From: Escherichia coli
Lineage (GTDB): Bacteria > Pseudomonadota > Gammaproteobacteria > Enterobacterales > Enterobacteriaceae
Assembly (NCBI RefSeq): GCF_024298765.1
Contig: NZ_CP101210.1
DNA length: 64,000 bases
Direction: 5' to 3' (one strand)
Part shown: one piece after another, positions 1 to 10,330 of the stretch
Position numbering within the stretch: the first letter of the stretch is position 1
Layout of the letters: the number at the start of each line of letters is the position of its first letter
The notes under the pieces: generated by a model
Database searches by the model: none
Told to the model about the DNA's origin: nothing
The model's input: the letters and a program-made list of their open reading frames with translations, nothing else
Made by a program: the position numbers and the translations under genes

Positions 1-1713
1 GAGAAAGCGGTAGTGCGTTATGCCCGTGAACATAATCTCGGCAAGATTATTCTCGGTCGCCCGGCTTCGCGCCGCTGGTGGCGTCGGGAAACATTTGCTG
101 ACCGGCTGGCACGCATCGCCCCCGATCTCGATCAGGTGCTGGTCGCGCTTGATGAACCACCCGCCCGCACGATTAACAACGCGCCGGATAGCCGCTCTTT
201 TAAAGACAAGTGGCGGGTACAGATTCAGGGATGCGTGGTTGCCGCCGCGTTATGCGCCGTTATCACCTTAATTGCCATGCAGTGGCTGATGGCGTTTGAT
301 GCCGCCAACCTGGTGATGCTGTATCTACTTGGCGTGGTGGTGGTGGCGCTATTTTATGGACGCTGGCCTTCGGTGGTTGCTACCGTCATTAATGTGGTGA
401 GTTTCGATCTCTTTTTTATCGCCCCACGCGGCACGCTCGCCGTCTCTGATGTGCAATATCTGCTGACCTTCGCGGTGATGTTAACCGTCGGGCTGGTGAT
501 CGGGAACCTTACTGCTGGCGTGCGTTATCAGGCGCGGGTAGCCCGTTACCGCGAACAACGCACACGGCACTTATATGAAATGTCCAAAGCTCTGGCTGTG
601 GGCCGTAGTTCGCAGGATATCGCCGCCACCAGCGAACAGTTTATTGCCTCCACGTTTCATGCCCGTAGCCAGGTGTTGCTGCCTGATGACAACGGTAAAT
701 TGCAGCCGTTAACACATCCGCAAGGAATGACGCCGTGGGACGATGCCATCGCGCAGTGGAGTTTTGATAAAGGTCTGCCTGCGGGCGCGGGCACCGACAC
801 GTTACCCGGTGTACCGTACCAGATTTTGCCGCTAAAAAGCGGCGAGAAAACCTACGGACTGGTGGTGGTGGAACCGGGGAATCTGCGCCAGTTGATGATC
901 CCGGAACAGCAGCGCCTGCTGGAGACGTTTACGCTGTTAGTCGCCAATGCGCTTGAGCGGCTGACGCTGACCGCCAGCGAAGAACAGGCGCGGATGGCAA
1001 GCGAACGTGAACAGATCCGCAACGCTCTGCTGGCGGCGCTTTCGCATGATTTACGCACGCCGCTCACGGTGCTGTTCGGTCAGGCAGAAATCTTAACGCT
1101 CGATCTGGCAAGCGAAGGATCGCCCCACGCCCGCCAGGCCAGCGAGATTCGTCAGCATGTGCTGAACACGACCCGACTGGTGAATAATCTGCTCGATATG
1201 GCGCGAATTCAGTCCGGCGGCTTTAATTTGAAGAAAGAGTGGTTAACGCTGGAAGAAGTGGTCGGCAGCGCGCTGCAAATGCTGGAACCGGGTTTATCGT
1301 CGCCTATCAATCTTTCTCTGCCAGAACCGCTGACCTTAATCCACGTTGACGGGCCGCTCTTTGAACGGGTGCTGATTAATCTGCTGGAGAACGCGGTGAA
1401 ATACGCGGGTGCGCAGGCCGAAATTGGTATCGATGCCCACGTTGAGGGCGAGAAGCTACAACTGGATGTCTGGGATAACGGCCCCGGTCTTCCGCCAGGC
1501 CAGGAGCAGACGATATTTGATAAGTTTGCTCGCGGGAATAAAGAGTCGGCGGTACCGGGTGTAGGGCTTGGGCTGGCAATTTGTCGGGCGATTGTGGATG
1601 TACACGGCGGCACCATTACCGCGTTCAACCGACCGGAAGGTGGTGCCTGTTTTCGTGTTACACTTCCCCAGCAAACCGCTCCTGAACTTGAAGAATTTCA
1701 TGAGGATATGTGA
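1..1713 (+). CDS. kdpD: Sensor histidine kinase KdpD, C-terminal ~566 aa; 5' end lies upstream of the window
   Basis: Frame 1 is open from base 1; His-kinase H-box (SHDLRTPL) and ATPase motifs (DNGPG, GLGL) present; overlaps kdpE start by 4 bp. Confidence 0.95.
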   Translation, partial: EKAVVRYAREHNLGKIILGRPASRRWWRRETFADRLARIAPDLDQVLVALDEPPARTINNAPDSRSFKDKWRVQIQGCVVAAALCAVITLIAMQWLMAFDAANLVMLYLLGVVVVALFYGRWPSVVATVINVVSFDLFFIAPRGTLAVSDVQYLLTFAVMLTVGLVIGNLTAGVRYQARVARYREQRTRHLYEMSKALAVGRSSQDIAATSEQFIASTFHARSQVLLPDDNGKLQPLTHPQGMTPWDDAIAQWSFDKGLPAGAGTDTLPGVPYQILPLKSGEKTYGLVVVEPGNLRQLMIPEQQRLLETFTLLVANALERLTLTASEEQARMASEREQIRNALLAALSHDLRTPLTVLFGQAEILTLDLASEGSPHARQASEIRQHVLNTTRLVNNLLDMARIQSGGFNLKKEWLTLEEVVGSALQMLEPGLSSPINLSLPEPLTLIHVDGPLFERVLINLLENAVKYAGAQAEIGIDAHVEGEKLQLDVWDNGPGLPPGQEQTIFDKFARGNKESAVPGVGLGLAICRAIVDVHGGTITAFNRPEGGACFRVTLPQQTAPELEEFHEDM

Positions 1714-2387
1714 CAAACGTTCTGATTGTTGAAGATGAACAGGCTATTCGTCGCTTTCTGCGCACGGCGCTGGAAGGCGACGGTATGCGCGTCTTTGAGG
1801 CCGAAACGCTGCAACGCGGCTTGCTGGAAGCGGCTACCCGTAAGCCAGATTTGATTATTCTCGATCTCGGCCTGCCCGATGGTGATGGGATTGAGTTTAT
1901 CCGCGACCTGCGCCAGTGGAGCGCGGTGCCGGTGATTGTGCTTTCCGCACGTAGCGAAGAGAGCGACAAAATCGCCGCGCTGGATGCCGGAGCGGATGAT
2001 TATCTGAGTAAGCCGTTTGGCATTGGCGAATTGCAGGCCCGTCTGCGCGTCGCTTTACGTCGCCACTCCGCCACCGCCGCGCCCGATCCGCTGGTGAAAT
2101 TTTCCGATGTTACCGTCGATTTAGCAGCTCGTGTGATCCATCGGGGCGAGGAAGAGGTGCATCTCACCCCGATTGAGTTCCGCCTGCTGGCAGTGTTGCT
2201 TAATAATGCGGGAAAAGTGCTCACCCAGCGCCAGCTCCTTAACCAGGTGTGGGGGCCAAACGCGGTCGAACACAGTCATTATTTGCGTATTTATATGGGG
2301 CATCTGCGACAAAAACTGGAACAGGACCCGGCCCGGCCTCGCCATTTTATTACTGAAACCGGTATTGGGTATCGGTTTATGCTTTGA
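1710..2387 (+). CDS. kdpE: Response regulator KdpE (GTG start)
   Basis: 225-aa OmpR-family regulator with receiver domain (LIVEDE...DLGLPDGDG) and winged-helix C-terminus; translationally coupled to kdpD. Confidence 0.95.
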   Translation: MTNVLIVEDEQAIRRFLRTALEGDGMRVFEAETLQRGLLEAATRKPDLIILDLGLPDGDGIEFIRDLRQWSAVPVIVLSARSEESDKIAALDAGADDYLSKPFGIGELQARLRVALRRHSATAAPDPLVKFSDVTVDLAARVIHRGEEEVHLTPIEFRLLAVLLNNAGKVLTQRQLLNQVWGPNAVEHSHYLRIYMGHLRQKLEQDPARPRHFITETGIGYRFML

Positions 2388-2424
2388 ATATTAATTTTAA
2401 TACATCCTGCCTTTTATTAATTAA

Positions 2425-2451
2425 AGCCGTAATAATAAATACGGCTTTTTA
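2425..2451 (+). terminator. Rho-independent terminator after kdpE
   Basis: Hairpin agccgt...acggct followed by a T-run. Confidence 0.6.
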
Positions 2452-2620
2452 TCTTAAACAACACACAAAAATAACAATTCAATATTTTATATTACTGAGT
2501 AAAAAGCTCATCATTAAATAAATTAAGATTGATCATTTTTTATTGATCACCTTCACAGTTCAACCGTATTTCCTGGATAGAATACCTTCACCTTCATTCA
2601 CATCAGGAAAGGTAAATTAA

Positions 2621-2725
2621 ATGGAAAATAACAGCCGCACTATGCCCCATATAAGGCGGACAACTCATATTATGAAGTTTGCTCATCGCAATAGCTTCGA
2701 CTTTCACTTCTTCAATGCCCGTTAG
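2621..2725 (+). CDS. speFL: speF leader arrest peptide SpeFL (34 codons)
   Basis: Short ORF MENNSRTMPHIRRTTHIMKFAHRNSFDFHFFNAR about 260 bp upstream of the speF ATG; matches the ornithine-sensing leader peptide as I recall it; not in the ORF track because it is too short. Confidence 0.7.
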   Translation: MENNSRTMPHIRRTTHIMKFAHRNSFDFHFFNAR

Positions 2726-2982
2726 TCTACCGACTAAGGGCACTTCAGCGTACAGGTCTTCCTGACTCTCTGTATTACAGGCATATGCCTGTATTCCGCA
2801 GTGCTCATTCTCTGTTAACCCTTGTATTATCAGCCACCGGACTGATAAGGGTTTCTGCATTCTGAAAAAAGCAAACTTCTGATTAATTTATCAGCGGGGT
2901 AACTTTGCTTTTTTTCCGGCACGATCGATTTCTCATTCGAGAAATTGAGGACCTGCTATTACCCAAAATAAAGAGATGGAAA

Positions 2983-5181
2983 ATGTCAAAATTAAAAATT
3001 GCGGTTAGTGATTCTTGCCCGGACTGTTTTACCACGCAGCGAGAATGTATCTATATTAATGAAAACAGTAATATCGATGTGGCGGCAATAGTTTTATCGC
3101 TCAACGATGTTACACGCGGAAAACTCGATGAAATCGATGCCACGGGTTATGGCATCCCGGTATTTATTGCTACTGAAAATCAAGAACGTGTACCCGCAGA
3201 GTATTTGCCCCGTATTTCGGGTGTCTTTGAGAATTGCGAATCGCGACGAGAATTTTATGGTCGTCAGTTAGAAACCGCAGCCAGCCATTATGAAACGCAA
3301 CTGCGCCCGCCCTTCTTCCGCGCACTGGTCGATTATGTCAATCAGGGTAACAGCGCGTTTGATTGCCCCGGTCATCAGGGCGGCGAATTTTTCCGTCGCC
3401 ATCCCGCGGGGAATCAGTTTGTGGAATACTTTGGTGAGGCGCTGTTCCGTGCTGACTTGTGCAACGCCGACGTAGCGATGGGCGATCTGCTGATTCACGA
3501 AGGCGCGCCATGCATTGCACAGCAACATGCGGCAAAAGTGTTTAATGCCGATAAAACATACTTCGTTTTAAATGGCACTTCATCTTCTAACAAAGTGGTT
3601 TTAAACGCCCTGCTGACACCGGGTGATCTGGTGCTGTTTGACCGCAATAACCACAAATCTAACCACCACGGAGCGTTGCTACAGGCTGGCGCGACACCGG
3701 TTTATCTGGAAACCGCACGTAACCCGTATGGTTTTATCGGTGGTATTGACGCTCACTGTTTTGAAGAAAGTTACCTGCGTGAACTGATCGCGGAATTCGC
3801 ACCGCAGCGGGCAAAAGAGGCTCGTCCTTTCCGCCTCGCCGTTATTCAGCTAGGCACTTACGACGGTACGATTTATAACGCCCGTCAGGTGGTGGATAAA
3901 ATTGGTCATCTGTGTGACTACATCCTCTTTGACTCCGCATGGGTCGGCTATGAGCAGTTTATCCCGATGATGGCGGACTGTTCACCACTGTTGCTGGATC
4001 TTAATGAGAACGATCCGGGTATTCTGGTTACGCAATCTGTGCATAAACAGCAGGCTGGTTTTTCTCAGACTTCACAAATCCATAAAAAAGACAGCCATAT
4101 CAAAGGGCAACAGCGTTATGTACCGCACAAACGCATGAACAACGCCTTTATGATGCATGCCTCCACCAGCCCGTTCTATCCGCTGTTTGCCGCACTGGAT
4201 ATCAACGCCAAAATGCATGAAGGTGTCAGCGGTCGTAATATGTGGATGGATTGTGTGGTAAATGGCATTAATGCCCGCAAACTGATCCTCGATAACTGTC
4301 AGCATATTCGTCCATTCGTACCTGAACTGGTGGATGGTAAACCCTGGCAGTCGTATGAAACGGCGCAAATTGCGGTTGATCTGCGCTTCTTCCAGTTTGT
4401 ACCAGGTGAGCACTGGCATTCTTTTGAAGGCTATGCAGAGAATCAATACTTTGTCGATCCGTGCAAACTGTTGCTGACAACCCCAGGTATTGATGCACGT
4501 AACGGCGAATATGAAGCGTTCGGTGTACCCGCGACGATTCTTGCTAACTTCCTGCGCGAAAATGGCGTAGTGCCGGAAAAATGCGATCTTAACTCCATCC
4601 TCTTTCTGCTGACTCCGGCAGAAGATATGGCCAAACTTCAGCAACTTGTTGCTCTGCTGGTACGCTTCGAAAAACTGCTTGAGTCCGACGCGCCATTATC
4701 AGAAGTACTGCCTTCCATCTACAAACAGCATGAAGAGCGCTACACCGGTTATACCCTGCGTCAGTTGTGTCAGGAAATGCATGATTTGTATGCCCGTCAC
4801 AACGTGAAACAACTGCAAAAAGAGATGTTCCGTAAGGAACACTTCCCACGCGTAAGCATGAATCCACAAGAAGCCAACTACGCCTATTTACGCGGTGAAG
4901 TGGAGCTGGTTCGTCTGCCGGATGCAGAAGGCCGTATCGCTGCCGAAGGTGCGCTTCCTTATCCTCCGGGTGTGCTGTGTGTTGTTCCGGGTGAAATCTG
5001 GGGTGGTGCTGTTCTGCGTTACTTCAGCGCTCTGGAAGAAGGGATCAACCTGCTGCCAGGTTTTGCACCAGAGCTGCAGGGTGTCTATATCGAAGAACAT
5101 GATGGTCGTAAGCAAGTTTGGTGCTATGTCATCAAGCCTCGTGATGCGCAAAGCACCCTGTTGAAAGGGGAAAAATTATGA
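2983..5181 (+). CDS. speF: Inducible ornithine decarboxylase SpeF (732 aa)
   Basis: Large fold-type I PLP decarboxylase; start taken at MSKLKIAV with RBS aagaga upstream, not the extended ORF-track start at 2905. Confidence 0.95.
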   Translation: MSKLKIAVSDSCPDCFTTQRECIYINENSNIDVAAIVLSLNDVTRGKLDEIDATGYGIPVFIATENQERVPAEYLPRISGVFENCESRREFYGRQLETAASHYETQLRPPFFRALVDYVNQGNSAFDCPGHQGGEFFRRHPAGNQFVEYFGEALFRADLCNADVAMGDLLIHEGAPCIAQQHAAKVFNADKTYFVLNGTSSSNKVVLNALLTPGDLVLFDRNNHKSNHHGALLQAGATPVYLETARNPYGFIGGIDAHCFEESYLRELIAEFAPQRAKEARPFRLAVIQLGTYDGTIYNARQVVDKIGHLCDYILFDSAWVGYEQFIPMMADCSPLLLDLNENDPGILVTQSVHKQQAGFSQTSQIHKKDSHIKGQQRYVPHKRMNNAFMMHASTSPFYPLFAALDINAKMHEGVSGRNMWMDCVVNGINARKLILDNCQHIRPFVPELVDGKPWQSYETAQIAVDLRFFQFVPGEHWHSFEGYAENQYFVDPCKLLLTTPGIDARNGEYEAFGVPATILANFLRENGVVPEKCDLNSILFLLTPAEDMAKLQQLVALLVRFEKLLESDAPLSEVLPSIYKQHEERYTGYTLRQLCQEMHDLYARHNVKQLQKEMFRKEHFPRVSMNPQEANYAYLRGEVELVRLPDAEGRIAAEGALPYPPGVLCVVPGEIWGGAVLRYFSALEEGINLLPGFAPELQGVYIEEHDGRKQVWCYVIKPRDAQSTLLKGEKL

Positions 5182-6497
5182 GTCAGGCTAAATCGAATAA
5201 GATGGGCGTCGTTCAGTTAACCATACTGACGATGGTCAACATGATGGGCTCCGGTATCATCATGCTGCCGACAAAGCTTGCCGAAGTTGGGACAATCTCA
5301 ATTATCTCCTGGCTGGTGACAGCCGTAGGCTCAATGGCACTGGCATGGGCATTCGCAAAATGCGGTATGTTCAGCCGTAAATCAGGCGGTATGGGCGGTT
5401 ATGCGGAGTATGCTTTCGGTAAATCCGGGAACTTTATGGCGAACTACACCTACGGTGTCTCGCTGCTGATTGCTAACGTCGCGATTGCTATTTCGGCGGT
5501 TGGTTACGGCACCGAACTGCTCGGCGCGAGTTTGTCGCCAGTGCAGATTGGTCTTGCGACCATCGGAGTGCTGTGGATTTGTACCGTGGCTAACTTTGGT
5601 GGTGCGCGCATTACCGGGCAAATCAGTAGCATTACTGTGTGGGGGGTCATTATTCCGGTCGTCGGTCTGTGCATTATCGGCTGGTTCTGGTTTAGCCCGA
5701 CGCTATACGCTAACTCATGGAACCCGCACCATGTGCCGTTCTTTAGCGCTGTAGGTTCTTCCATCGCCATGACGTTGTGGGCTTTCCTCGGTCTGGAGTC
5801 AGCCTGTGCCAACGCCGAAGTAGTTGAAAACCCGGAACGTAACGTGCCGATTGCAGTTCTTGGCGGTACTTTAGGTGCGGCGGTGATTTATATCGTCTCC
5901 ACCAACGTGATTGCAGGGATAGTGCCTAATATGGAGCTGGCAAATTCAACGGCACCATTTGGCCTGACTTTCGCACAGATGTTCACGCCAGAAGTGGGTA
6001 AAGTCATTATGGCGCTGATGGTGATGTCCTGCTGCGGTTCACTGCTTGGCTGGCAGTTCACCATTGCCCAGGTGTTTAAATCTTCATCTGATGAAGGCTA
6101 CTTCCCTAAAATTTTCTCCCGTGTAACCAAAGTGGATGCACCGGTTCAGGGAATGTTGACCATTGTGATTATTCAGAGTGGATTGGCACTGATGACCATT
6201 AGCCCGTCACTGAACAGCCAGTTCAACGTGCTGGTTAACCTGGCCGTGGTGACCAATATCATTCCGTATATTCTGTCGATGGCAGCATTAGTCATTATTC
6301 AGCAGGTCGCTAATGTGCCACCATCAAAAGCGAAAGTAGCAAACTTTGTTGCCTTTGTTGGTGCGATGTACAGTTTCTATGCGCTGTACTCATCCGGGGA
6401 AGAAGCCATGCTGTACGGTTCCATCGTGACCTTCCTTGGTTGGACACTGTATGGTCTGGTCTCACCACGCTTTGAACTGAAAAATAAACACGGTTAA
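5178..6497 (+). CDS. potE: Putrescine-ornithine antiporter PotE
   Basis: 439-aa polytopic APC-family transporter; 4-bp overlap with the speF stop. Confidence 0.95.
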   Translation: MSQAKSNKMGVVQLTILTMVNMMGSGIIMLPTKLAEVGTISIISWLVTAVGSMALAWAFAKCGMFSRKSGGMGGYAEYAFGKSGNFMANYTYGVSLLIANVAIAISAVGYGTELLGASLSPVQIGLATIGVLWICTVANFGGARITGQISSITVWGVIIPVVGLCIIGWFWFSPTLYANSWNPHHVPFFSAVGSSIAMTLWAFLGLESACANAEVVENPERNVPIAVLGGTLGAAVIYIVSTNVIAGIVPNMELANSTAPFGLTFAQMFTPEVGKVIMALMVMSCCGSLLGWQFTIAQVFKSSSDEGYFPKIFSRVTKVDAPVQGMLTIVIIQSGLALMTISPSLNSQFNVLVNLAVVTNIIPYILSMAALVIIQQVANVPPSKAKVANFVAFVGAMYSFYALYSSGEEAMLYGSIVTFLGWTLYGLVSPRFELKNKHG

Positions 6498-6512
6498 TAA
6501 AGCAAAGTAAAA

Positions 6513-6545
6513 AAGGGCGATTGAATGGTCGCCCTTTCTGTTTGT
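6513..6545 (+). terminator. Rho-independent terminator after potE
   Basis: Hairpin gggcga...tcgccc followed by a T-run. Confidence 0.6.
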
Positions 6546-6577
6546 TGACAAAGAGTTCTTTATTTATGCCGCATCCG

Positions 6578-6722
6578 GCAGGTGTAGGATCCAAACGCGG
6601 TCGGACACAGCAACTATTTGCGTAATTATATGAGGCATTTGCGACAAAAACTGGAACAGGATCTCGCCCGCCCCGCCATTTCATTACTGAAACCAGTATT
6701 GGGTATCGGTTTATGCTTTGAA
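6578..6722 (+). repeat. Degenerate direct copy of the kdpE 3' end (about 90% identity to 2243..2389)
   Basis: Aligned by eye: caggtgt..ccaaacgcggtcg..ttgcgacaaaaactggaacagga..attactgaaacc.gtattgggtatcggtttatgctttgaa; kdpE reading frame is lost after an indel. Confidence 0.85.
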
Positions 6723-6844
6723 AAAAGTGGCATTGTATGGATAAAGTCATTTTTTATTCACATATAAGGAACTTAATATTTAAAAAATGTCCCATACAAT
6801 GCCTCATCATAAATGACACCGTAGCATACAAGGAGCAAGTAGCG

Positions 6845-7240
6845 ATGCGTGATTGGACACAACGCCCTGAATTCGCAAGCGTGCGGGCTTTACCCATCGC
6901 CGATGATGTCGCAGGGGGAATTTTCTTAATGGTGGCGATCTTGGGGAAGATACTGGCTGCGTTTATTATTTTGCGCCAGATACGCTGATTTGGGAAAGTC
7001 TGGAGGTTGGATATTCTGAGTTTCTTCAGTGGGCATTATCCGGTGATTTAGATACCTTCAATGAAAATGTACGCTGGCCGCAATGGCAAGAAGACGTAAT
7101 AAAATTATCGGCAACGGAAGCCTTCACTTTCTACCCTTTCTTATGGGTACAAAGTGAAGAAGCAAGAACAAGAAAAGTTATTTCGCTTACTGAACTCTGG
7201 GAAATGCAGTATCAAATGAAAGAAACATTCACGCAATAAG
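6845..7240 (+). pseudogene. Frameshifted ORF remnant (ybfG-like); N-terminal 47 codons in one frame, about 100 further codons in another frame with no start
   Basis: ORF MRDWTQRPEFASVRALPIADD... ends at 6988; the adjacent frame reads ...FAPDTLIWESLEVGYSEFLQWALSGDLDTFNENVRWPQWQEDVIKLS...KETFTQ* without an ATG. Confidence 0.3.
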
Positions 7241-7279
7241 ACATGTTCAGGTCCGGGTTTCATTCCTGGACTCGCTATT

Positions 7280-7774
7280 TTAATGTGTATTTATCGCTTT
7301 CAATTCTTGCTGGCAATTTTCTGACTGGCAGCGTCGCAACTCAATAATCCCGACATGCATCATCGAGCCAATAAAGCCGCTTTCGCTGACATAATCCTCA
7401 TTAACTATCGGTCGAGTGCCGGGCTTGCCCTGGCAAACCTGCATAAAAAATGAGGTGTAGCATTGCCAACCAGGATTTAAACCGGCCTTTTCTTGTGCTG
7501 ACATATCGTGAAGATAAGTAAGTTCTTTTTCGTTCCCGCCTGACAACTGCCAGCGGCGGGTATTATCAGGTAAGTTATCGCCACGGCAATTTGTCTTACA
7601 CCGGGAAAGCGCAATATTTACCGCAATGCTCCCCGTTAATCCTCTGGTTTTATCTTTAGGGGTCAGTAACCAGTCACCAGCTAATGATGATTGTTCAGGT
7701 TGGGCGCATGCTGTCAGCAGTAGTGTGGCGGTAATTAATGTCACTCTGACGACCAGACTCCTTTTGGTCTTCAT
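7280..7774 (-). CDS. ybfP: Lipoprotein YbfP (164 aa)
   Basis: Signal peptide plus lipobox (LLLTAC); start taken at MKTKRSLVV rather than the extended ORF-track start. Confidence 0.8.
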   Translation of the reverse strand: MKTKRSLVVRVTLITATLLLTACAQPEQSSLAGDWLLTPKDKTRGLTGSIAVNIALSRCKTNCRGDNLPDNTRRWQLSGGNEKELTYLHDMSAQEKAGLNPGWQCYTSFFMQVCQGKPGTRPIVNEDYVSESGFIGSMMHVGIIELRRCQSENCQQELKAINTH

Positions 7775-7825
7775 TTTGAATTCCCTTGAGCTATTCAGTT
7801 TGTTGGCAAAGTGCTCGTTGTTCAT

Positions 7826-7930
7826 GCCGGATGCGGCGTGAACGCCTTATCCGGCCTACAAAATCGCGTAAATTCAATATATTGCACCATCTTCCCAGGC
7901 CTGATAAGCGTAGCGCATCAGGCAGTCATA
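7826..7930. repeat. REP/BIME palindromic elements
   Basis: Two inverted REP units (gccggatgcggcgtgaacgccttatccggcctaca ... aggcctgataagcgtagcgcatcaggca). Confidence 0.6.
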
Positions 7931-7934
7931 AGTA

Positions 7935-8640
7935 ATAAATATCCTCCGGCATAGCCGGAGGTTTTTCAAATGCGCCTATAAGGCTCTCTTACCAGCCGCG
8001 CCCTAACAGGCGCACACGATCTGACATTTGCATCCAACTTCGTTACTTACGGCCCGTAAACGGGCTGCCCGGATAGGGAATCGATAACTGCTCTCCCATT
8101 TTATCCTCTTCAAGCTGGTGCTTTATGTAATCCTGTATCTTCGCCGTGTTCTTACCCACCGTATCGACGTAGTACCCTCTGCACCAGAACTCTCTGTTCC
8201 TGTATTTGAATTTCAAATCACCAAACTGCTCGTAAAGCATCAGACTGCTTTTCCCTTTCAGATATCCCATAAAGCCGGATACACTCATTTTGGGCGGGAT
8301 CTCCACAAGCATATGGATATGATCTGCACAGCATTCAGCTTCAAGAATCCGTACGCTTTTCCACTCACACAGCTTTCTCAAAATACTGCCTATTGCTCTA
8401 CGCTTCTCTCTGTAGAACACTTGTCTTCGGTATTTTGGCGCAAAAACTATGTGATATTTACAGTTCCATCGGGTGTGCGCTAAGCTCTTTTCGTTCCCCA
8501 TTGGGACCCCCTTTTGATTTCTTGTTTGACACTTGCAGTTGCCAGACCGCAAGGTGTTTTAACAAATCAAAAGGGGTTTTAATAACTGGCTCAAAGCTGA
8601 AAGCTTTCCGGAACCCCCAGCCTAGCTGGGGGTTTTCTGT
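7935..8640 (-). mobile_element. IS200-family insertion sequence (boundaries approximate)
   Basis: Contains a Y1 HUH transposase gene plus subterminal hairpins (cccccagc-cta-gctggggg at 8614..8632; cctccggcatagccggagg at 7943..7961); about 0.7 kb, as expected for IS200. Confidence 0.55.
8043..8501 (-). CDS. tnpA: IS200 transposase TnpA (152 aa)
   Basis: Near-identical to Salmonella IS200 TnpA as I recall it (MGNEKSLAHTRWNCKYHIVFAPKYRR...HIHML...CRGYYVDTVG); HUH motif and catalytic Tyr present. Confidence 0.85.
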   Translation of the reverse strand: MGNEKSLAHTRWNCKYHIVFAPKYRRQVFYREKRRAIGSILRKLCEWKSVRILEAECCADHIHMLVEIPPKMSVSGFMGYLKGKSSLMLYEQFGDLKFKYRNREFWCRGYYVDTVGKNTAKIQDYIKHQLEEDKMGEQLSIPYPGSPFTGRK

Positions 8641-8647
8641 GCACAAA

Positions 8648-8676
8648 AAAGGGCGATCTTCCGACCGCCCTTTTTC
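8648..8676 (-). terminator. Terminator downstream of pgm
   Basis: Hairpin gggcg...cgccc flanked by A/T runs immediately 3' of the pgm stop. Confidence 0.5.
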
Positions 8677-8689
8677 TTATTAAATGTGT

Positions 8690-10330
8690 TTACGCGTTTT
8701 TCAGAACTTCGCTAACAATCTCAACCGCTTCTTTCTCAATTTGCTTGCGATGTTCTTCCCCGAGGAAGCTTTCGCAATAAATCTTGTACGCGTCTTCCGT
8801 GCCTGACGGACGCGCGGCGAACCAGCCGTTGTCAGTCATCACTTTCAGACCGCCAATAGAAGCACCGTTGCCCGGAGCAGCAGTCAGGCGTGCGGTGATC
8901 GGGTCACCTGCCAGGGTGCTGGCGCTCACCATTTCCGGAGACAGTTTAGACAGCGCCGCTTTTTGTGCGGAAGTCGCGGCTGCCTGCAAACGGTTGTAGC
9001 TCGGCGCACCAAAGCGTTTTGCCAGTTCGTTGTAGTGTTCCTGCGGATTCTTACCGGTAACAGCGGTGATTTCCGCCGCCAGCAGACACATAATGATGCC
9101 GTCTTTATCGGTGGACCACGGCGTGCCGTCGAAACGCAGGAAGGAAGCCCCTGCGCTCTCTTCGCCGCCAAAGCCGAAGCTGCCGTCGAACAGACCATCA
9201 ACAAACCATTTGAAACCTACCGGGACTTCTACCAGCTTACGGCCCAAGTCATTGACCACACGGTCGATCATCGCAGATGAAACCAGCGTTTTACCGACAG
9301 CAACATCTTTGCCCCACTGCGGACGGTGCTGGAACAGGTAGTTGATCGCCACCGCCAGGTAGTGGTTCGGATTCATCAAACCTGCCGGAGTGACGATACC
9401 GTGACGGTCATAATCCGGGTCGTTAGCAAACGCCAGATCGAACTTATCACGCAGTGCCAGCAGGCCCGCCATCGCACACTCGGAGGAGCAGTCCATACGG
9501 ATCGCACCGTCTTTATCTAGGTGCATAAAGCGGAAGGTTTGATCGACCTGATCGTTAACGATGGTCAGGTTGAGGTTGTAATACTCGCCAATACGCTTCC
9601 AGTATTCGATACCAGAACCGCCCAGCGGATCGACACCCAGCGTCAGGCCCGCTTTCTGAATCGCTGCCATATCAACGATATCGGCCAGCCCTTCCACGAA
9701 CGGCTGCACCAGATCCTGCTCTTTCACATGACCGGATGCCATCGCTTCGTCGAGGGAGATACGCTTCACGCCTTTCAGGCCATCAGCCATCAGTGCGTTG
9801 GCCCTGTCTTCCACCACTTTAGTGACGTTGGTATCAGCCGGGCCACCATTTGGCGGATTGTACTTGATACCACCATCTTCCGGCGGGTTATGAGACGGTG
9901 TAATCACGATACCGTCTGCCAGCGGGCCACCTTTTTTATTGTGAACCAGAATGGCATTGGAAATGGCAGGTGTCGGAGTGAAGCCATTGTTTTCCTGCAC
10001 AATGATATCAACACCGTTCGCTGCCAGCACTTCCAGTACGGAAATGAACGCAGGCTCGGACAGGGCGTGAGTATCTTTACCCACATAGCAAGGGCCAGTG
10101 ATGCCGTTTTTCGCACGTTCTTCAGCAATTGCCTGAGCGATCGCCAGAATGTGCGGCTCGTTAAAGCTGTGGCGCGCTGCACTGCCACGGTGACCGGAAG
10201 TACCGAATTTCACCGCGTGCTCCGCATTCCCTGCTTCTGGTTTCAGTACATAATATTGCGCCGTCAGTTGGGCGACGTTAATCAAATCACTCTGTTGTGC
10301 AGGTTGGCCTGCACGATTGTGGATTGCCAT
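8690..10330 (-). CDS. pgm: Phosphoglucomutase (546 aa)
   Basis: Alpha-D-phosphohexomutase signature (TPSHNP); start at MAIHNRAG. Confidence 0.95.

Follow-up and report, generated by a model that had tools for sequence, protein, structure and literature searches.

The ybfG gene of Escherichia coli K-12, formerly split into ybfG and ybfH, is annotated as a pseudogene of the DUF2625 family and has been treated as a neutral pseudogene and used as a control (PMC10067269). A stretch of 64,000 nucleotides from the E. coli contig NZ_CP101210.1 (the window) contains the same locus in reversed orientation. Its chromosomal position and flanking genes are those of K-12 (potE, kdpE′ remnant, ybfG, ybfP, pgm) and nucleotide identity is high, so the two loci are orthologous. 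An earlier note, made from the sequence of the window alone, had suspected a decayed ybfG-like gene here. Judged from its sequence, the segment 6845-7239 is almost certainly a pseudogene, the non-functional remnant of ybfG; the latter is an accessory gene of E. coli and specifies a 216-residue cytoplasmic DUF2625 protein. The feature is already known, as a ybfG/DUF2625 pseudogene is flagged by the NCBI pipeline at the same coordinates (6737..7239). The window copy itself matters little, since the pseudogene was rightly suspected, is flagged in RefSeq and has a textbook pseudogene as its K-12 counterpart. What is added here is the exact anatomy of the allele: its true start, its two lesions and a visible reading frame boundary that does not coincide with the site of the frameshift.

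An open reading frame (ORF) of 83 codons is present at 6737..6988 on the plus strand in the ORF list, exactly as had been described. The second frame, said to continue without a start codon up to 7240, is open from 6907 to 7236 and indeed has no ATG near its beginning; its end is at 7239 (TAA 7237-7239). In three-frame translation this frame reads as protein-like sequence (…LNGGDLGEDTGCVYYFAPDTLIWESLEVGYSEFLQWALSGDLDTF…). The peptide encoded by 6922-7236 matched the Pfam family DUF2625 (PF10946) at positions 114-206 of the profile with an E value of 2e-36 and 125.5 bits against a cut-off of 27 bits, and the peptide that begins at ATG 6845 matched positions 83-114 of the same profile (E=0.012). 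The NCBIfam equivalog model NF008494 matched the second frame over positions 113-216 of 216 (E=1e-70). On this model the window fragment by itself reaches 237 bits, under the equivalog cut-off of 278 bits, as expected for a truncated remnant; an intact allele scores 510 bits here and 290 bits with Pfam. The two fragments abut on one profile at position 114, at the frameshift. This rules out that the two ORFs arose by chance in intergenic DNA and have nothing to do with each other, with no homologue spanning both frames.

The lesions were mapped by comparison with alleles of other strains that are intact and encode the complete 216-residue protein in a single frame, whereas in the window codons 3-87 are gone and the frame is shifted at codon 112. 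The true start is ATG 6845, since both the Pfam and the NCBIfam models span residues 1-216 of the product beginning there. The 83-codon ORF of the earlier note arises because an upstream ATG (6737) is by chance in frame with this start; as a piece of the gene it holds good for its last 47 codons only, the first 36 being upstream DNA. This upstream part probably served ybfG as 5′ leader or promoter region, and a promoter-like site (TTAATA-16-TACAAT, by consensus match only) is found at 6773-6800. A 252-base pair (bp) in-frame deletion at 6852/6853 takes out codons 3-87 and leaves a hybrid GAT codon. No microhomology was seen at its junction: the bases next to it are GA on the left and T on the right, and the deleted segment begins with A and ends in AG. 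Of the 29 invariant columns of an alignment of 37 family members, 12 are lost with this segment (L32, T50, S52, G55, G62, G63, D67, R72, G75, S76, G77 and R83). This deletion is not visible from the window sequence alone and adds to what had been noted before. The change of frame that had been recognised is real, but it sits at about 6923/6924 and not at the ORF end at 6988: a 4-bp deletion (TTGC or TGCT) after 6923 or 6924 falls in codon 112, 62 bases 5′ of the premature stop. The 4-bp gap was placed for the best fit, which gave 4 mismatches in 387 nucleotides.

Two lesions would disable the allele, the 252-bp in-frame deletion and the 4-bp frameshifting deletion. From the native start, translation would stop at 6988 after 47 codons. 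The resulting 47 residues comprise 26 that are recognisable (MR, the hybrid D and residues 88-110) and an out-of-frame tail, the bases 6925..6988 carrying the authentic LNGGDLGEDTGCVYYFAPDTL sequence in the other frame. The 104 authentic codons at 6925-7236 would be untranslatable because they have no start codon of their own. The retained 387 nucleotides have only two window-specific changes, N134I and Y158N. Neither is synonymous, and Y158 is invariant among the 37 family members; this pattern fits relaxed constraint, the counts being small. Thus, relative to an intact conserved homologue, the frame is disrupted by the 252-bp deletion, the 4-bp deletion and the premature stop at 6986-6988, which would leave no other full-length product, in agreement with the 'frameshifted' flag of the NCBI annotation pipeline PGAP. 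No evidence against pseudogene status was found. The out-of-frame read-through at 6925-6985 is markedly hydrophobic (LMVAILGKILAAFIIL), and both the Shine-Dalgarno motif and the start codon ahead of it are intact; if expressed, it would give a small membrane-prone peptide.

The frequency of this allele was determined by megablast against 5,426 complete E. coli genomes. Positions 6500-7300 (an 801-base query) match E. coli strain 104 (NZ_CP029164.1) and a second chicken isolate at 100% identity. The ybfG locus was found in 1,858 genomes, and the 252-bp segment is kept in 1,780 of them. A 201-bp query over both junctions (6790-6990) returned 72 records at an identity of at least 99%. All 60 of the matches listed are single-piece and 100% identical and come from independent assemblies. 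Many carriers are avian or avian pathogenic E. coli, and some are from human, pig, dog and river water. Because the allele is identical in many independent genomes, these comparisons identify the double deletion as a real, fixed, lineage-specific variant common to about 72 genomes and not a sequencing error. The allele may serve as a lineage marker for these carriers, many of which are from poultry.

Explanations other than a dead gene were weighed against these data. Indels in homopolymer-rich sequence are a common sequencing error and the 4-bp gap adjoins a T run, so the lesions could be assembly or sequencing artefacts in a gene that is really intact. This is extremely improbable, as the 60 listed complete genomes, obtained in many laboratories and on many platforms, all show the junction region and its two deletions at 100% identity, and a 252-bp deletion is atypical for sequencing error. 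It is equally hard to credit that programmed ribosomal frameshifting joins the two frames and that a functional, shortened DUF2625 protein is still made. The shift site does lie in a T-rich run (GGAATTTTCTTAA, 6917-6929) and the allele keeps its native Shine-Dalgarno motif and start codon; however, the intact alleles of other strains are read in a single frame without any shift, and what made the site is the 4-bp deletion and not a conserved slippery heptamer. Even the corrected product would be without residues 3-87 (84 residues) and thus without 12 of the 29 invariant positions, and PGAP calls the locus a pseudogene.

Somewhat less remote, and still very unlikely, is the co-option of the residual ORF (47 residues from ATG 6845, or 83 from ATG 6737) as a small hydrophobic or membrane peptide. 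The strong Shine-Dalgarno motif AAGGAG (6830-6835), the hydrophobic C-terminal tail GGIFLMVAILGKILAAFIIL that the frameshift yields and the conservation of the allele across about 72 genomes would suit such a role. This conservation, however, is the 100% nucleotide identity of a young clonal allele and is uninformative on selection, and the tail is an out-of-frame by-product whose out-of-frame part has neither homologues nor a family match. Loss of function of ybfG thus accounts best for the window allele.

The inactivation in the window is one of several in E. coli. Eight ybfG alleles were inspected, of which four are intact and four are broken, the latter including those of K-12, of strain H2 and of strain 104, whose allele is that of the window. 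The H2 gene is broken by E136*. The K-12 gene and the window remnant are about 95% identical in nucleotide sequence outside the gaps and both are non-functional. The K-12 gene is of full length (651 bp) and is interrupted by just one nonsense codon, W70* (TGG to TAG), besides which it has G109V, whereas the window allele carries the 252-bp and 4-bp deletions. As the lesions differ, the two inactivation events are independent. By comparison of these alleles, there are at least three independent inactivations: W70* in K-12, E136* in H2 and the two deletions in the window.

Most E. coli genomes (about two thirds of the complete ones) are without ybfG. In the majority, among them IHE3034, ATCC 25922 and an O157:H7 record, potE adjoins pgm and ybfG is absent; the gap between potE and pgm is 56 bp in IHE3034, the one junction inspected. 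A third haplotype was seen in strain VCSW5, with kdpE, a repetitive extragenic palindromic (REP) element, ybfP and pgm, and without speF, potE or ybfG. The interval between kdpE and pgm (2388-8689 in the window) is highly polymorphic in E. coli, and the kdpE′-ybfG-ybfP block is present in about 1,858 of the 5,426 genomes.

Features of the ybfG remnant and of its surroundings in the window. Coordinates of neighbouring genes are those of the strain 104 annotation (PGAP), converted to window positions.
Feature	Position	Strand	Basis or remark
kdpD, then kdpE	kdpE 1710-2387		strain 104 annotation
speFL, speF, then potE	potE 5178-6497		strain 104 annotation
kdpE′ remnant, diverged copy, with a frameshift, of the final ~145 bp of kdpE	6583..6727	+	aligns with true kdpE 3′ end, 2244-2387
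"winged helix-turn-helix" pseudogene	6591-6721		strain 104 annotation
"DUF2625 family protein, frameshifted" pseudogene	6737-7239		PGAP, strain 104
Upstream non-genic part of the 83-codon ORF, 36 codons by chance in frame	6737..6844	+	intact allele annotated from the ATG equivalent to 6845
Shine-Dalgarno-like AAGGAG, 9 nucleotides 5′ of the true start codon	6830..6835	+	
True ATG, codon 2 and two bases of codon 3 (ATGCGTGA)	6845..6852	+	deletion junction 6852/6853
ybfG codons 88-111, in frame of ATG 6845	6853..6924	+	Pfam profile positions 83-114
Out-of-frame read-through to premature TGA 6986-6988, hydrophobic tail LMVAILGKILAAFIILRQIR	6925..6988	+	translation
ybfG codons 113-216 and stop TAA 7237-7239, shifted frame, no own start	6925..7239	+	DUF2625 and NF008494 matches
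Terminator-like hairpin between convergent ybfG′ and ybfP	7250-7272	+	consensus scan only
Hypothetical protein/lipoprotein (ybfP in K-12)	7280-7774	minus	strain 104 annotation
IS200C tnpA	8043-8501	minus	strain 104 annotation
pgm, then seqA	pgm 8690-10330	minus	strain 104 annotation

The gene order around the remnant is kdpDE-speFL-speF-potE-kdpE′-ybfG′-ybfP-IS200C-pgm. The surroundings had been described as a repeat of the kdpE end and an insertion scar, and this description is sound, a copy of the kdpE 3′ end lying directly upstream of the ybfG region at 6583-6727. PGAP annotates this copy as a 'winged helix-turn-helix domain-containing protein', frameshifted and with its N-terminus missing. 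The true kdpE of another strain matches it at 90.8%, and one base pair is deleted in the window copy. The speFL-speF-potE block is thus bracketed by two kdpE 3′ ends. The donor and direction of the kdpE′ copy were sought by comparison with true kdpE alleles of different strains; the window and K-12 copies gave a mixed pattern of shared variants, which hints at gene conversion or a foreign donor.

On the other side of the remnant, ybfP converges on ybfG′ and the hairpin is common to both. The mechanical ORF of ybfP has 181 codons from ATG 7825 (7280-7825, minus strand), and the RefSeq start at 7774 gives a product of 164 residues. This product begins with a lipoprotein-type signal (MKTKRSLVV…LLLTAC) with a lipobox cysteine and belongs to no Pfam or NCBIfam family. 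ybfP is present without ybfG in strain VCSW5. A scan of 6300-8100 with Rfam found no RNA family.

The DUF2625 family is patchy in its distribution, occurring in Enterobacterales (Kosakonia, Erwinia, Pantoea, Citrobacter, Yersinia and Dickeya), Burkholderia and Bacteroidota. In a protein search the nearest true relatives outside E. coli were 45-57% identical. Two apparently closer orthologues from outside E. coli, P0005 (86% identity) and P0006 (75%), were rejected as artefacts, as their Logan contigs (L011-L013) consist of ybfG DNA from E. coli in which C-to-T or A-to-G changes are systematic and stops are numerous. From this pattern of changes, the contigs are probably bisulfite- or deaminase-converted sequencing libraries of E. 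coli DNA; such libraries mimic divergent orthologues in protein searches. A literature search for DUF2625 by name found no papers.

To the extent that its predicted structure is a guide, intact YbfG may have a role in immunity to toxins. An AlphaFold2 model built with the 37 homologues was confident (predicted local distance difference test, pLDDT, 89.3; predicted template modelling score, pTM, 0.88), and the top 21 Foldseek matches were all of Tdi1/SUKH-like kinds, so that the predicted model shares its three-dimensional fold with these immunity proteins. Our proposal, a tentative one, is that DUF2625/YbfG is an uncharacterised SUKH/Tdi1-like immunity branch and that E. coli ybfG is an orphan immunity gene in the course of being lost, the window allele being dead. 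Intact YbfG would then be, as its SUKH/Tdi1-like fold suggests, an orphan polymorphic-toxin immunity (toxin-binding) protein, and its gene would decay or vanish time and again where E. coli lineages have ceased to encounter the cognate toxin. If true, this would explain why ybfG is patchy and repeatedly decaying.

Several observations weigh against the proposed immunity role. Membership was not found with the SUKH and DUF1851 sequence profiles (SMI1_KNR4, SUKH-3/4/5/6 and DUF1851): the best SMI1_KNR4 match was E=0.021 and 15.8 bits against a cut-off of 25.4 bits, with matches in 4 of the 37 members; SUKH_6 reached E=0.074 in one of the 37; and DUF1851 matched none. A profile search of PDB sequences gave no meaningful match and recovered neither Tdi1 nor SUKH proteins, so the relationship is visible only at the level of fold. 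No toxin gene (Rhs, Ntox, contact-dependent inhibition or type VI secretion system) adjoins DUF2625 at any of 6 loci outside E. coli or in the window. In addition, SUKH-fold proteins also have roles other than immunity, as in Syd and Knr4.

The best contextual support for the immunity role comes from a Flavobacterium metagenome contig (L018, 5001-9012), where 20 bp separate a DUF2625 gene from the DUF2314 gene downstream of it and a SUFU-domain gene is nearby. DUF2314 is Imm34, described by Zhang et al. as a resident of poly-immunity loci (PMC3482391), and by analogy the DUF2625-DUF2314-SUFU arrangement resembles such a locus. A Yersinia homologue of DUF2625 is in a mobile island, and that of Citrobacter is among small ORFs of unknown function with a DUF596 gene. 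There is a precedent in Bacteroidales, in which orphan Tdi genes occur commonly and are protective (PMC10470768).

The structural link of DUF2625 to Tdi1/SUKH proteins is an only mildly novel by-product of the analysis; it concerns the family rather than the dead copy in the window, and offers a testable functional lead. Among described proteins, the predicted YbfG fold is likened to Tdi1/Tdi2 (DUF1851), which confer immunity to Ntox15 type VI secretion DNase effectors (PDB 8g0k, 8fzz, 6itw), and to the SUKH/SMI1-KNR4 immunity proteins YobK (2prv), RhsPI (8bd1) and Lin2918 (2icg). With identities of only 11-14% between YbfG and these proteins, the resemblance is one of predicted fold and not of demonstrated membership.
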